IMG/VR virus record: IMGVR_UViG_2740892439_000006
Location: 1 to 53,794 of that record
Strand: one strand, 5' to 3'
Length of the DNA stretch: 53,794 nucleotides
DNA from: a virus
Taxonomy: Duplodnaviria; Heunggongvirae; Uroviricota; Caudoviricetes
The position numbers were made by a program, and so were the translations under genes. The notes under the pieces are model-generated. The model worked only from the letters and a program-made list of their open reading frames with translations, was not told where the DNA came from and searched no databases. Positions 2,666-24,200 of this stretch are shown in pieces (position 1 is the stretch's first letter; every line of letters starts with the position of its first letter).

Positions 2666-3046
2666 CTACTCCGCGGAACCATACAATCTACGTAACGTGT
2701 CGGCAACAGAAGATACAGATATCTCTCCGGTCGCAGCCCCTACGGTAAGGTCTGCCAGTTCAGGTGAATCAAATACCTGCACCCCGTTACGGCGTAGAAA
2801 TAGCAGCGCACTGTTTAGCGCGGTACGCTTATTGGCATCATTGAATATATGCCCTCTCGCTGTAGCCACCAGGTAGGTGGCGGAGACTTCGAAAAGGTCG
2901 GTGATCTCTTCGTAGGCAACTCTGGCCTGAACTCTCCCGATAATGGCCTCTGCCCTACCCGGATCTGACATTCCCGGCAGGCCGCCGTAGCGGTTTATAT
3001 TCGCATCATGAAGCGCAATAAGTTCTTCCGGTGATATATGCCTCAT
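2666..3046 (-). CDS. doc: Doc toxin (Fic/Doc family kinase)
   Basis: 126 aa; [11 protein letters not shown] motif; matches P1 Doc as I recall it. Confidence 0.95.
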
Positions 3047-3267
3047 TATCGGTTAACCAGTTCCTTGTTGGTGGAATCCAGAGTGTCAAACAGAGATGCA
3101 AATTCGGCATCCAGCGCCGCTTTTTTGTAGGCTTCGAAAGTAGCCTTGCTGACAATTACTGCTGGCTCACGGCCTCTGCGGGTGATTTCAACCTCTTCCC
3201 CGGCTTCAACATTGTTGAGCACTTCAGAAAAGTTGCCGCGCGCGGTACGGAAGTTAATGGATTGCAT
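3046..3267 (-). CDS. phd: Phd antitoxin
   Basis: 73 aa from [12 protein letters not shown]...; matches P1 Phd as recalled; stop/start overlap with doc. Confidence 0.95.
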
Positions 3268-8815: not shown

Positions 8816-9811
8816 TCAGTTATTGAACGTGATCACTCCGCGCTCGATGGCGAAGTCAAAAAGCTGGTTAGCGGCTACGTAAAGGCGTATGCCATGTGCT
8901 TTTTCCCATGCCCGAACATCGTTTTCTGCGCTTCTGGCGCAGTCATCGCAAAGAGGAACAGCCCAGCGGTCGTGTTCGTTTAACGAGCGGGCGCGGTACA
9001 TGAACGGGTGGTTAACTTTGCCACCGCATCCGATGCACGGACGAGAAACCACAAACCGGAGATAAGCCGGGCTTTTACCGAGGACCGCTTTTGGTCGGCG
9101 CATATAAAGCAGGCCGGAATCCTCATCTACAGACAGGTTGACGATCTGCTCTGCGGTTATGTCCACCAGCTCGCGGGTACTGTGCTCCCAGGTGATATCT
9201 GATTCTTTCAGCGTACCGGTAGGGATTTCAGTTTTTGGCTGACAAAATGCAATGCGACCAGCTTCATCAGGCAGTTCGTCTTTAAGATTCCGGCGAATGG
9301 CCCAAAAGGTGAGTTCAACCATGCTCAGATCGCGATCTGGCGGAAGTTTTAACTCGCTGGCAGCCCAGTTCATAATCCAGTTGGCGCGATTCCGTGACAG
9401 TTGGTCTTCCAGCTTGCCGTATCCCTTCATCATGTATTCCGCATCATGCTTCCAGCACAGGCGAACGGCAGAACCGTTATAGAAATGGGTGGTTAGCTGG
9501 TGGCTGCAATCGCGCTTATCATGCGCCTGGCAATCGTGAATGTTGGTGCTAACCCAGTGAACGAGAGAATCCTCACCACCTAACGCGTTAAATACACGCT
9601 CACTTTGAAAAAAGGGTGCCAGTGACTGGTTGGCAACCAGTGAATAATTCAGGTCAACGACACCATCAGGGGTGTTTTCAGCCTGTTCACGCGGCAATGG
9701 GGATATAAGAAAACGGCGTCCTGCGCCGATGTAATTGCTGGTGGGCTTATCTACAGGAAAGACAGCCACACCAGTTTCATTTACGACATATGGGGTGATT
9801 ATTGCACTCAT
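8816..9811 (-). CDS. Cys-rich phage protein (DUF968/HNH-like C-terminus)
   Basis: 331 aa; C-terminal PCIGCGGK...HPFMY...PLCDDCAR motif. Confidence 0.45.
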   Translation of the reverse strand: MSAIITPYVVNETGVAVFPVDKPTSNYIGAGRRFLISPLPREQAENTPDGVVDLNYSLVANQSLAPFFQSERVFNALGGEDSLVHWVSTNIHDCQAHDKRDCSHQLTTHFYNGSAVRLCWKHDAEYMMKGYGKLEDQLSRNRANWIMNWAASELKLPPDRDLSMVELTFWAIRRNLKDELPDEAGRIAFCQPKTEIPTGTLKESDITWEHSTRELVDITAEQIVNLSVDEDSGLLYMRRPKAVLGKSPAYLRFVVSRPCIGCGGKVNHPFMYRARSLNEHDRWAVPLCDDCARSAENDVRAWEKAHGIRLYVAANQLFDFAIERGVITFNN

Positions 9812-20730: not shown

Positions 20731-20775
20731 ACCACACATAGCCTAGTAGTTTATGCTGGGCTTTCATTTTTTTGA
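20717..20775. terminator. bidirectional terminator between convergent genes
   Basis: stem agcataaac/gtttatgct flanked by A-run and T-run. Confidence 0.5.
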
Positions 20776-21492
20776 AAGATCAATTCCAGTATTATCAAAT
20801 AAACTGGAAATATCAGACACCAATTTATTAAAATGCTTGTCATCATTATAGAATGATGTGCTTTTTATAGCGACTATAAAATCACATAAATCTTGCGGAG
20901 ATTCAATGCTAACACCCTTATTTTTATATAGTTCAATAATACTGCCAACATCAGTATGCAATAGTTTTATCGCGCCACAAATTTCTCGCTGTTTCGTAGT
21001 TAGGTCATTAAGTTTATTTTCATTTTCATATAAGATTTGTTTTGAATATTTAGCATCATTGGTTGCTTGATTTAACTTTGTTTTCTTTCTTTGCAATTCT
21101 ATTCTTTTATCATAATCAGCAACTTCATCTAAATATCTTATTTCAGTGTATAATTTACTTGTTAGCTTAGATATCTTCAGTGTGAGAAAAGGAGCTAATA
21201 CAGATGCAAATACTCCATAAATAAATGGAATTACAACGTGATAAACCCACGGGGATACAATCCAATTATCAAAGAACGGGACATTACCACCAACAAAAAC
21301 AATAGATAATGTATATAGGATGTCGTCCTTTGACTTTAATATAATTAAAATATCCTTCCAGTTAATGATTAGAAAAGAAATGACAACATATGCAAAAACC
21401 TTGTTAAATATTTTATCTTTTATAATCTCAGAAAATGATTTTAGTTCTGTTTCATTTATAGACGGATTATCTTTAACTTTTTCTGACATCAT
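20764..21492 (-). CDS. membrane protein with cytoplasmic coiled coil (Abi-like candidate)
   Basis: 242 aa, very AT-rich codon usage, hydrophobic N-terminal half. Confidence 0.45.
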   Translation of the reverse strand: MMSEKVKDNPSINETELKSFSEIIKDKIFNKVFAYVVISFLIINWKDILIILKSKDDILYTLSIVFVGGNVPFFDNWIVSPWVYHVVIPFIYGVFASVLAPFLTLKISKLTSKLYTEIRYLDEVADYDKRIELQRKKTKLNQATNDAKYSKQILYENENKLNDLTTKQREICGAIKLLHTDVGSIIELYKNKGVSIESPQDLCDFIVAIKSTSFYNDDKHFNKLVSDISSLFDNTGIDLSKK

Positions 21493-21513
21493 AGCTTATC
21501 CTGATTACTTTTA

Positions 21514-21714
21514 TTATGGATAGTTAAAAGATTCAACAGGTGATGGTGGCTGAATTGGGTAATGTTTCTTCTCGTACTCCTCAATGAGAAGACTCATAAC
21601 CTCAAAGAAATCACCTTCCGGAGTATTCATTTCCGGTTCGTTATCGAACATCGGTTCGACAGCACGCAGTGCGGCCTCATAATCTTGTTCTGTACGGATA
21701 GGTTTAATGTTCAT
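21514..21714 (-). CDS. HigA-like N-terminal domain fragment (no HTH)
   Basis: 66 aa; TEQDYEAALRAVEPMF...EPEMNTPEGD resembles N-domain of two-domain HigA antitoxins. Confidence 0.4.
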   Translation of the reverse strand: MNIKPIRTEQDYEAALRAVEPMFDNEPEMNTPEGDFFEVMSLLIEEYEKKHYPIQPPSPVESFNYP

Positions 21715-21726
21715 TAATTACAAAGG

Positions 21727-21758
21727 AAAGCCCACTTGCTAAGTGGGCTTTTTGTATG
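21727..21758. terminator. terminator-like hairpin
   Basis: stem agcccactt/aagtgggct followed by ttttt. Confidence 0.35.
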
Positions 21759-21770
21759 TGTTTTACTATA

Positions 21771-22109
21771 TCAGGCTGCTTTTTTATTCAGGTTCCGCTG
21801 AGAAATAAATTTTTCAGCAGTATTGATACGACTTAACTCTTCCTGAACGCGCATATCATTTTCGACTTCCCACAGGTCTACTGCGGTCTGAAGATTAATC
21901 CAAAAATCTACAGAAGTATCGAATGCTTTTGCCAGGCGATATGCCATATCCATCGTTAGCTTACGATTATTATTAACAAGAGCACTTACGGTGTTACGAT
22001 GAACATGAAGTATTTCTGCTAACTCGTTGATCTTCAGCTCTAACGGCTCCAGGTATTCGTACAGCAGGATATCACCTACGGTCGTCGGTTTTCTGGTTGC
22101 CTGTTTCAT
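21771..22109 (-). CDS. higA: HigA-family antitoxin (XRE HTH)
   Basis: VGDILLYEYLEPLELKINELAEILHVHRNTVSALVNNNRKLTMDMAYRLAKAFDTSVDFWINLQ matches HigA family pattern. Confidence 0.7.
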   Translation of the reverse strand: MKQATRKPTTVGDILLYEYLEPLELKINELAEILHVHRNTVSALVNNNRKLTMDMAYRLAKAFDTSVDFWINLQTAVDLWEVENDMRVQEELSRINTAEKFISQRNLNKKAA

Positions 22110-22179
22110 TTTTTGCCCTTACTAGCGTGCGTATTAAGTGGACTCTGGTCAGAACCCGGTCCGTAACCGGGTATCTGTT

Positions 22180-22482
22180 TTAGTATTTGTGAGGGTCGAG
22201 ATACAAGTCCTCGGCCTTTCCGTTAACCCACTTAAAAATTAACCTATATTGCTTATTCACCCTTACTGATGAATAGCCATTTAGCTTCCCTGACAGTTCC
22301 TCATACCGATTACCTGGTGGTGATCTTAAATCCTTACAGGTAGTTGCGGCATTGATAATGTCCAACTTCCGTGACAATGTCATATGAATATCAGGAGGTA
22401 TCTTTCTATGTGGTGTTGAAAATTCAAAAAAATCATCAAGCCACGCATCCCTGAAATCCTTTATGTTAATTTTTTTGGTCAT
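22180..22482 (-). CDS. higB: HigB-family toxin (RelE/ParE superfamily)
   Basis: LRSPPGNRYEELSG...YSSVRVNKQYRLIFKW matches HigB pattern; upstream of higA. Confidence 0.7.
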   Translation of the reverse strand: MTKKINIKDFRDAWLDDFFEFSTPHRKIPPDIHMTLSRKLDIINAATTCKDLRSPPGNRYEELSGKLNGYSSVRVNKQYRLIFKWVNGKAEDLYLDPHKY

Positions 22483-22632
22483 TAGTCATTTGATCCTCCG
22501 TGATGATTACCGAATGCCATAACTATAGCGCACCGTTGCACTGTGCGCAAGTGCATTTTATGAATTCCCCCTCCTTCATCCAAAATCACAATCTCCAGAA
22601 AATCTTCCTTTCGATACCTGACAGATCGACCT

Positions 22633-23436
22633 TTGAGGATGCTTATGGGCCGTTTTGACGAATGGTTTGCTGACGATGCAAACCTGGCAAGTAAGGAGTC
22701 AGAACATGACAGCACGCAGAGAGAAACGCCAGCGCCGATTGAAGCGAATGCAGGAGGCGCGCCGGAACATGGCAATACAGGTTCGGATTCATTCAGCATT
22801 CTGGAAGAGCAACCCGCCGCCAAAGCTGATAGCCATGATAATTTTGCTGATAGCAACGGTGGCCTTACTCCGGATGCTGGCGAATCAGATATAGCCATAC
22901 TTCCATCTTCCCTGGCTGGCAGAGAACCGACTCCACAGTTAAAAGCACGCTATAACGGGCATAAAGCCTTTAACGACCAAATCCGCGCAGACTGGATGCT
23001 GATTATTGAATCCAGCCCAGACGCGTTTCAGGCTCTCTTATATCGACCAGATGTTGGCACATATGGGGTAGTCAGCGACGAAACAGGAGAAGAGTCATTC
23101 ACTGAACTGGATAACAACCAACGCGAACTGACTTACCAGGAACCTGAAATCGTTTATGTGCTGGATAACCCTGACGGGCGTGACTCTTTCCATGCGATTG
23201 ACGCAGACGGTGAGCAGGATGGCTTAACCGATGATGTTCTGATTCTGCGTATTGCAGCAAATAACGTCCCCGTCGGCTCAATTCTTGAATGGAATGAAGA
23301 GATGGTAAACGGCGTAGCGCGCCGCTGGTGGTACGTGCACCGTATTTTTAGCTACGGCACACAGCATGTTGGTTCGCTTTACTACTGCATACCTGCCAGG
23401 AATTTTGATACGACTCAAAACGGAGTGATCGAATGA
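22633..23436 (+). CDS. hypothetical acidic protein (start uncertain)
   Basis: 267 aa track ORF; 3-prime end coupled to next gene (ATGA); N-terminal part overlaps an SD-preceded small ORF in another frame. Confidence 0.35.
   Translation: MRMLMGRFDEWFADDANLASKESEHDSTQRETPAPIEANAGGAPEHGNTGSDSFSILEEQPAAKADSHDNFADSNGGLTPDAGESDIAILPSSLAGREPTPQLKARYNGHKAFNDQIRADWMLIIESSPDAFQALLYRPDVGTYGVVSDETGEESFTELDNNQRELTYQEPEIVYVLDNPDGRDSFHAIDADGEQDGLTDDVLILRIAANNVPVGSILEWNEEMVNGVARRWWYVHRIFSYGTQHVGSLYYCIPARNFDTTQNGVIE
22706..22894 (+). CDS. small basic protein with C-terminal transmembrane helix
   Basis: Strong RBS taaggag 7 nt upstream of ATG; 62 aa, R/K-rich N-terminus then hydrophobic stretch. Confidence 0.35.
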   Translation: MTARREKRQRRLKRMQEARRNMAIQVRIHSAFWKSNPPPKLIAMIILLIATVALLRMLANQI

Positions 23437-24200
23437 CTTCAAATAAAACCCTCCTGGCGCGAACAGGTGAATGGCAAACCTCACGCACAGGAAAATTCCA
23501 GACCACGGGCTTTGAAAACGTGGATAACGCGTTTGCGACGCTAATCAGCAACATTTTTTCTGATATCTTACTGGTGGCCCCCGCGCCGGAAGAAAAACGC
23601 TTTGCGTCATTCCTGAATCGTCCACCAGCAGAGCGTGTCTATGTGGCCCGTTTCGACAATGCGATCGAGTTTCTTAAAGCAGTTCGTCGCGCAAATGCCG
23701 GGCAAGGGAGAAAACCTGAAAACCAGAACATTAACCGGGATGCTCTCCCCCTGGTCAATATCTCACGCACTATGGATATCAATTATATCAACGATGATCA
23801 GCAGATTGACCGCAAAAAAGTAGCCAGTTTTTGCGAACCGGATACCGGAATGCCTTTAGCAGAACTGGAATACACCCAGGCCATTCTGACGTATGACGTT
23901 ACGTTAATGGCAACTGATAAAGCGACCATGAGTCTGATGTGTAATTCGCTGGGCGCACGCCTTCGCCTGATGACAGGTACACAATTTGAAGCAACCACTC
24001 ACCTTGTTCGTGTCCCGGTCCCGCTGATTTGCTCGATACAGGATTCCAAAGAAGTCGGCTTTACGGATGTTTCAGCACCAATTGGAGAAGAGCGTATTTA
24101 TGCCACACAAGCGCCGATAAGTGTGATTGCAGACGTGATCACAGCATGGGAGTTGGACGCAAAACGTATTATTACCGAAACCTCGATATCTATGGGGTGA
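23433..24200 (+). CDS. putative tail/baseplate structural protein
   Basis: 255 aa; translationally coupled series leading to spike-like gene. Confidence 0.4.
   Translation: MTSNKTLLARTGEWQTSRTGKFQTTGFENVDNAFATLISNIFSDILLVAPAPEEKRFASFLNRPPAERVYVARFDNAIEFLKAVRRANAGQGRKPENQNINRDALPLVNISRTMDINYINDDQQIDRKKVASFCEPDTGMPLAELEYTQAILTYDVTLMATDKATMSLMCNSLGARLRLMTGTQFEATTHLVRVPVPLICSIQDSKEVGFTDVSAPIGEERIYATQAPISVIADVITAWELDAKRIITETSISMG

Follow-up and report, generated by a model that had tools for sequence, protein, structure and literature searches.

Introduction

Toxin–antitoxin (TA) systems of the PF05015/TIGR02607 type, among them HigBA of Rts1 and Proteus vulgaris and GraTA of P. putida, consist of a ribosome-dependent mRNase, HigB, and its antitoxin HigA, which neutralizes the toxin and also represses the operon. 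Orphan antitoxins, or ‘anti-addiction’ modules, are a further concept in the field and are exemplified by the chromosomal ccd of Erwinia chrysanthemi. [quoted passage not shown] Two helices of E. coli HigA wrap around HigB, with the HTH motif at the C terminus (PMC7984235). HigA2 of Vibrio cholerae needs no more than its N-terminal segment to neutralize the toxin (PMC5416850). A HigA-like domain also occurs in the PD-lambda-2 system, where it is fused to a C-terminal peptidase in the B protein, and a C component related to a P4 antitoxin is needed for defence (PMC9519451).

Here, we describe a locus on a D6-like phage-plasmid in which a complete higBA pair of the first type is followed by a 66-codon reading frame related to the K-12/Shigella antitoxin. 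This frame is the 5′ portion (58 codons) of a gene for a two-domain HigA of the K-12 HigA/YgjM type and belongs to another family than the adjacent higA. Its gene name and pseudogene status are already given in the D6 GenBank record and in RefSeq, so the finding itself is already known; the reconstruction of a cassette swap and the series of lesions presented below add detail to it and do not define a new kind of system.

Results and discussion

A complete higBA cassette on a D6-like phage-plasmid

The window, by which we mean the whole stretch of 53,794 nt that was analysed, is by sequence comparison a D6-like phage-plasmid of the P1 family. Phage D6 (MF356679/NC_050154) carries the same locus as orf70-orf71-orf72, with the same cassette junction and 99.4% DNA identity over positions 21533–23500 (rightwards from 21533). 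About 70 plasmids of E. coli, Salmonella and Shigella, nearly all typed as non-mobilizable, are ~99% identical to this region across its whole length. The locus is present in 95 of 5,426 complete E. coli genomes and is plasmid-borne in every case. Its TA genes are housed in a variable island between the homologues of P1 gene 25 and gene 7, and the features of the region are as follows.

22483..22582, minus strand: upstream part of the cassette with a candidate higBA promoter/operator (palindrome and −10-like element)
22180..22482, minus strand: higB, 100 aa, opening gene of the intact TA cassette, encoding a RelE-fold toxin of the HigB/GraT type (PF05015)
22154..22172, minus strand: GC-rich hairpin in the 70-nt higB–higA spacer (7 pairs, 5 of them G–C)
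21771..22109, minus strand: higA, 112 aa, single-domain HTH antitoxin, plasmid paralogue of chromosomal YbaQ (TIGR02607)
21725..21753, no strand assigned: 11–13-bp hairpin right behind the higA stop, at the 3′ end of the cassette (fold −17.9 kcal/mol, z = −2.7)
21722..22582, minus strand: whole higBA cassette (promoter region, higB, higA and hairpin), 861 bp, delimited by blastn and MAFFT breakpoints
21514..21714, minus strand: higA2 pseudogene remnant, 66 codons, identified by profile, D6 homology and structure-model evidence and by its PGAP label

The toxin assignment is strong: HigB matches Pfam PF05015 over the full profile (positions 1–91 of 91, E = 4e-35) as well as phrog_3066 (‘toxin of TA system’), equals D6 orf70 in length, and has GraT as its closest solved structure (6F8S_B, E = 3e-14). 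The antitoxin lies directly downstream of it. HigA matches TIGR02607 (‘antidote_HigA’) at 102.5 bits (cutoff 47.7; E = 8e-30), also matches the HTH_3 domain PF01381 of Pfam, and aligns to E. coli YbaQ (2EBY) over residues 1–108 (E = 1e-53). In domain content and toxin-first order, this pair belongs with Rts1/P. vulgaris HigBA, P. putida GraTA and E. coli YbaQ.

Upstream of higB, a palindrome, TGCACTGTGCGCAAGTGCA, at 22537–22555 and a −10-like TATAGT at 22522–22527 (minus strand) mark out 22483–22582 as a candidate promoter/operator of higBA, although a simple promoter scan made no call there. By analogy with related systems, HigB would be an mRNase that depends on the ribosome. HigA would restrain it and probably represses its own promoter as well. 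The working TA unit would be this two-gene pair, in which the remnant has no part.

Pairwise blastn and a MAFFT alignment against the sibling plasmids pKOr024_2 and pTB423, which carry a different toxin gene (higB2) at this position, place the cassette breakpoints at 21721/21722 and 22582/22583; homology to the higB2-type siblings restarts only at 22583. D6 shares the hairpin at 21725–21753; the higB2-higA2 siblings lack it. In either orientation it resembles a terminator, the U-tract being weaker on the minus strand. By megablast, the 861-bp cassette was found only on D6-like plasmids in E. coli. At just 70–77% identity, the chromosomal ybaQ locus does not account for its origin.

A second intact TA module of the element was located by tblastn with P1 Phd and Doc sequences as queries.

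2669..3267 (approximate ends), minus strand: phd-doc, with 98.6% (Phd, E = 5e-45) and 98.4% (Doc, E = 1e-80) identity to the P1 queries

The element therefore carries at least two TA modules, as the original prediction stated, and this combination of higBA and phd-doc has already been published for D6-like elements (PMC6799933). The two modules would act side by side in plasmid addiction, possibly also against phages, and together should stabilize the plasmid prophage.

The 66-codon frame is the N-terminal part of a two-domain HigA

The three minus-strand frames follow one another in the order higB, higA, 66-codon frame, and a spacer of 56 nt separates the higA stop from the last of them. Used alone as a query, the 66-aa sequence has no match in Pfam, NCBIfam or, by sequence (phmmer), the PDB. 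Homology was established instead through PHROGs and PADLOC profiles, the full-length gene of D6 and a structure model. The frame matches positions 1–63 of 166 of phrog_1373 (E = 8e-19) and positions 1–65 of 402 of the PADLOC profile PD-Lambda-2_B (E = 2.5e-16). Its codons 1–58 (21541–21714) share their start codon with phage D6 orf72 and are identical to it at 57 of 58 positions, which rules out a chance open reading frame. Beyond codon 58 the identity breaks off and ~200 nt are missing from the window; the last eight codons and the stop (21514–21540) come from a deletion or recombination junction. RefSeq annotation by PGAP agrees, labelling the window-type frame of pE2863-2 and pB20159_2 as ‘type II toxin-antitoxin system HigA family antitoxin; incomplete; missing C-terminus’.

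The parent protein, D6 orf72, has 119 residues with HTH_3 at residues 63–115 and is annotated as ‘HigA family addiction module anti-toxin’. It aligns to E. coli/Shigella HigA (5IFG, 5YCL) across both domains (residues 6–112, E = 8e-8), and together with the higA2 of the sibling plasmids it follows the K-12/Shigella plan of hairpin and HTH, with only ~24% identity to K-12-type HigA (likewise 24% when the hairpins are aligned structurally). The 66-aa sequence itself has no Pfam match to an HTH domain, and the corresponding part of orf72 is deleted from the window.

An AlphaFold model of the 66 residues shows a two-helix hairpin (helices 9–24 and 32–51; pLDDT 85.8) followed by a low-confidence tail, with pLDDT 90–95 for residues 1–50. 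The seven best structural matches in the PDB are all E. coli/Shigella HigA chains (rmsd 1.9–2.7 Å), at E-values of 0.4–2 that are non-significant alone with so short a query. Compared with K-12-type HigA, the window keeps the first 58 codons and with them the N-terminal hairpin; the HTH domain, an adjacent PF09907 toxin gene and expression signals of its own (promoter and Shine–Dalgarno sequence) are gone. The single-domain antitoxins of the Rts1/GraTA/YbaQ family, which consist of an HTH domain without an N-terminal hairpin, are unrelated to the remnant in architecture.

These results bear out the original prediction of a toxin-first higB-higA pair followed by a frame resembling the N-terminal, non-HTH domain of two-domain HigA proteins: the pair is identified by PF05015 and TIGR02607, the frame by orf72, profiles and model. 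The alignment proposed as a check succeeds through the parent orf72, and the sensitive homology search links the frame to the N-terminal parts of phrog_1373 and PD-Lambda-2_B. Its position downstream of higA was also correctly given, although the distance is 56 and not 57 nt.

Sibling plasmids point to a single cassette swap

Between the homologues of P1 genes 25 and 7, sibling plasmids show five states of the locus.

State 1, pTB423: higB2-higA2 only, without the third gene (orf73)
State 2, pKOr024_2: higB2-higA2-orf73
State 3, phage D6: higB-higA-hairpin-higA2 (full length)-orf73
State 4, the window: D6-like arrangement with higA2 truncated
State 5, pMTY12355_3: IS3 element inserted within the stump

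HigB2 of pKOr024_2 and pTB423 is a PF09907 HigB toxin (E = 2e-34) related to K-12 HigB; it matches the K-12/Shigella structures 5IFG_A and 5YCL_B at E = 3e-8, and the toxin-first order is alike. In both plasmids the higB2 stop lies 3 nt ahead of the higA2 ATG, and a GGAG Shine–Dalgarno sequence is contained within the 3′ end of the toxin gene. A PF09907 toxin stands upstream of higA2 in siblings (loci L004 and L005), and the immediate upstream neighbour of the 66-codon frame in the window is the unrelated higA with its hairpin. By tblastn, the window has no higB2.

Across PLSDB, higB2 is found in 24 records, at one place in each, and the listed window-type plasmids are not among them. By approximate counts, the intact higB2-higA2 pair occurs in ~18–21 records, a full-length or near full-length orphan higA2 without higB2 in ~18 (the frame being confirmed as intact in D6 and p98205 only), and the window-type stump, the commonest state, in ~70 of 112. 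The same cassette junction was found in every orphan-state element examined, which points to a single swap event.

From these states we infer the direction of the change. The variable island would first have held a higB2-higA2 operon, and the self-contained higBA cassette would then have displaced higB2, its promoter and the ribosome-binding site of higA2, up to the higA2 start codon. The outcome would be the arrangement of phage D6, with a full-length orphan higA2. With neither a toxin to neutralize nor its own signals for expression, this gene probably decayed, and in the lineage of the window a deletion or recombination would have taken out codons 59–119 (the HTH domain) and the downstream hairpin, bringing the stump up against a divergent allele of the gene that follows.

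PADLOC matches to PD-lambda-2 are strong at this locus: the sibling HigB2 matches PD-Lambda-2_A at E = 3e-42 and HigA2 matches the first 119 of 402 positions of PD-Lambda-2_B at E = 4e-43. Yet Pfam finds no peptidase domain on the B-like protein, there is no C component, and the window is without any A component. We therefore rejected membership in PD-lambda-2; the HigB- and HigA-like domains are what is shared.

The putative swap is also visible in the expression signals. Where the intact operon has the 3′ end of higB2, D6 and the window have the hairpin and then CCTTTGTAATTAATG, without a Shine–Dalgarno sequence; at the place of the GGAG motif stands CCTTTGTAATTA. A promoter scan, which was crude and yielded no more sites than shuffled sequence, found no minus-strand promoter-like site between 21714 and 21771. 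Read-through from the higBA promoter into the 66-codon frame is possible, the hairpin upstream of it having a poor U-tract on the minus strand, and the AU-rich start region might permit translation without a Shine–Dalgarno sequence.

Probable decay of the orphan antitoxin gene along several routes

Behind the identical cassette junction, higA2 has been hit by four independent lesions.

3′ truncation of higA2: the window type
+1 frameshift at codon ~52: P0012 and loci L010–L013, present in 74 collection blocks
In-frame loss of codons 27–45 (57 nt): P0044 and loci L014 and L015
IS3 insertion in the stump: pMTY12355_3

In addition, the protein collection holds a frameshifted variant of the window type itself (P0031). 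When the 66 residues were searched against the database, most matches were short fragments, broken off at many different points and continuing in unrelated frameshift tails; the small number of full-length relatives in this search reflects a limitation of the word index. A conserved family of short proteins made of the N-domain only was considered and rejected, breaks at many positions with unrelated tails being the pattern of decay.

Substitutions were compared between the two contexts. The two intact-pair alleles differ by 19 synonymous changes and 1 non-synonymous change (dN/dS 0.01), and their N-domains by 8 synonymous and 0 non-synonymous differences, versus ~1–2 synonymous and 3 non-synonymous changes in orphan-state N-domains. 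These counts are small and are only suggestive of relaxed constraint on the orphan higA2. In the C-terminal halves of the orphans dS jumps, a sign of recombination with intact-pair alleles.

Could the 66-aa protein instead be a third component of the adjacent higBA, either as a co-regulator or as a second antitoxin against the PF05015 HigB? It is encoded on the same strand 56 nt downstream of higA, and three-gene TA-like systems such as PD-lambda-2 exist (PMC9519451). The frame nevertheless belongs to the other antitoxin family, the one paired with PF09907 toxins, and lies outside the cassette boundary, behind the cassette hairpin. In a three-component TA system the third gene should be conserved and intact together with the pair; across the siblings an identical higBA is accompanied by a frame that is full length, truncated, frameshifted, internally deleted or interrupted by IS3. 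Chromosomal relE-like/ybaQ paralogues, moreover, are reported as two-gene or ybaQ-only loci. Because the frame is of a different family, outside the cassette and freely variable, we consider a third-component role very unlikely.

Of the two roles originally proposed for the frame, the one that survives is that of a remnant of a second antitoxin, for which the full-length gene is found in D6 and, beside its own toxin, in the siblings. A third regulatory component does not fit a frame that lacks a Shine–Dalgarno sequence behind the hairpin and is disrupted independently in relatives, and the word ‘gene’ was an overstatement, RefSeq/PGAP marking a pseudogene. In our reading the 66-codon frame is probably a non-functional, 3′-truncated higA2 remnant left after the cassette swap, and the stump would be inert DNA.

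A different question is whether the stump is still made and serves as a stand-alone ‘anti-addiction’ antitoxin against HigB2 that competing D6-like phage-plasmids with the same replicon and a higB2-higA2 pair either bring in or leave behind. The window-type element could in this way resist such competitors or displace them. The locus resembles anti-addiction modules in that the antitoxin gene has lost its toxin partner and toxin-bearing relatives circulate, and the K-12 chromosomal ybaQ, which has no toxin, shows the same orphan-antitoxin pattern. The stump retains the complete toxin-binding hairpin, predicted to be well folded and corresponding to the two helices by which E. coli HigA, with its HTH at the C terminus, wraps HigB (PMC7984235); in VcHigA2 such an N-terminal segment neutralizes the toxin by itself (PMC5416850). 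Siblings bearing higB2 circulate in the same species and share the replicon cluster (rep_cluster_1704). No state is commoner than that of the window (~70 of 112 PLSDB records), and the weak minus-strand U-tract of the upstream hairpin would favour read-through. The distribution of lesions is also in keeping with such a role. The two commonest, the window truncation and the codon-52 frameshift, leave the hairpin whole and the two that destroy it are rare, a bias that would be explained if the stump were an anti-addiction weapon between phage-plasmids.

Against this, the stump has no Shine–Dalgarno sequence and no predicted promoter and sits behind a hairpin. Relatives tolerate an IS3 insertion as well as a 57-nt deletion running through the toxin-binding hairpin, the frameshifted variant P0031 exists, and non-synonymous changes build up in the orphan N-domains. 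The abundance of the window type is explicable by clonal spread, 62 records being at least 99% identical, and the short homologues, with their many breakpoints and unrelated tails, do not look like a conserved short family. The multiple inactivating lesions set this locus apart from anti-addiction modules and argue for decay. We regard a stand-alone anti-addiction antitoxin as unlikely. Its specific form, in which higBA read-through would yield the retained hairpin as a minimal antitoxin without DNA binding that disarms the HigB2 of incompatible D6-like phage-plasmids, seems quite unlikely; if the stump did protect against a rival HigB2, antitoxin fragments would act in plasmid competition.

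On the preferred reading of an inert remnant, the locus records TA turnover at a variable island: one TA cassette came in whole in place of the toxin half of another, and the antitoxin left behind is being lost by at least four independent routes. It also illustrates, on a small scale, how orphan antitoxins come about. For annotation, the frame should not be counted as a gene, nor the module as three-component.

The truncation abuts a divergent allele of the downstream gene

The gene beyond the truncation point differs between the window and D6, which keeps the full 119-aa orphan and another orf73 allele.

20764..21492, minus strand: orf73-like gene, 242 aa, divergent allele abutting the truncation point (phrog_8191, function unknown)

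The orf73-like protein matches phrog_8191 at E = 7e-121 and has no match in Pfam and none in PADLOC, for which the versions of the window, D6 and pKOr024_2 were tested. In D6 and the higB2 siblings, the higA2 stop is followed by a GC hairpin (GGCGGTC...GACCGC) and a T-run (TATTTT), both of which are missing from the window.

The truncation may therefore have been kept for what it removed: with the HTH half and this terminator-like hairpin gone, the orf73-like gene would come under read-through from higBA. Besides the loss of the hairpin and T-run, this reading could draw on the scan of 21492–21725, where no minus-strand promoter-like site was found, and on the orf73 allele exchange that accompanies the truncation. 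It is a purely sequence-based argument, however, and the scan performed no better than on shuffled sequence. The orf73-like protein has no assigned function, and the junction is explicable by a single recombination between diverged alleles, with no selection needed. Retention for the sake of orf73 expression is in our judgement distinctly unlikely. The truncation coincides with the exchange of the orf73 allele; DNA identity between alleles of this gene is only ~67–87%, and pTB423 lacks it altogether.

Intact higB2-higA2 pairs resemble part of PD-Lambda-2

Two sibling plasmids of the D6-like window carry an intact higB2-higA2 pair, a PF09907 toxin with a two-domain HigA.

L004:2323-2988, intact higB2-higA2 pair of pKOr024_2
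L005:2324-2989, intact higB2-higA2 pair of pTB423

When searched with PADLOC, the sibling pair very strongly matches two components of the three-component anti-phage system PD-Lambda-2, namely PD-Lambda-2_A (E=3e-42) and positions 1-119 of PD-Lambda-2_B (E=4e-43). However, the sibling higB2-higA2 has neither a peptidase domain nor a C gene and may represent a minimal PD-Lambda-2 relative borne by phage-plasmids. Many Stx-converting lambdoid phages also encode HigA2 homologues within the immunity region (~44% identity), often without annotation.

NC_004813 (BP-4795), 9418-9753, example of a lambdoid-phage HigA2 homologue

Orphan higA2 has been damaged independently

In other D6-like elements, the toxin-less higA2 has acquired lesions that are independent of one another: a +1 frameshift at codon ~52 (L010-L013), which is widespread and occurs in 74 collection blocks; an in-frame loss of 57 nt (L014 and L015); and an IS3 insertion (L006:1262-2490). 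In L010, gene calling gave no higB ahead of higA, and the higB toxin may thus be damaged there as well.

The higBA cassette has a chromosomal paralogue

The phage-plasmid higBA cassette (window 21771-22482) is paralogous to the relE-like/ybaQ locus of the E. coli chromosome, with 70-77% DNA identity. Among 5,426 E. coli genomes, this locus occupies 4,833 chromosomal places, yet both toxin and ybaQ are kept in only ~1,260 chromosomes. Most chromosomes, including that of K-12 MG1655, have ybaQ without the toxin, so that this HigA gene is orphaned too. The HigB of the plasmid might be cross-neutralised by YbaQ made from the chromosome.

Within the cassette, higB and higA are separated by an unusually long spacer of 70 nt containing a GC-rich hairpin, which might uncouple antitoxin from toxin expression.

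22154-22172, GC-rich hairpin ACCCGGTCCGTAACCGGGT in the higB-higA spacer
22482-22898, minus strand, 138-aa ORF that overlaps both the higB promoter region and the beginning of the gene-7 homologue on the plus strand

This ORF gave no meaningful match in a family search (E=0.31) and is most likely spurious.

Variable genes in the gene-25/gene-7 gap

The variable island between the P1 gene-25 and gene-7 homologues also contains an orf73-like gene.

20764-21492, minus strand, orf73-like gene (242 aa, phrog_8191)
L011:3745-4233, extra PF27200 (YjaZ) gene (162 aa), after orf73 in the same island of another D6-like element

The orf73-like protein has no match in Pfam, NCBIfam or PADLOC. At least three strongly divergent alleles exist (about 67-87% DNA identity), and pTB423 has no orf73-like gene; its behaviour is that of a rapidly evolving accessory (moron) gene within the island. 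The additional PF27200 gene in some D6-like elements adds to the evidence for an insertion hotspot in this gap.
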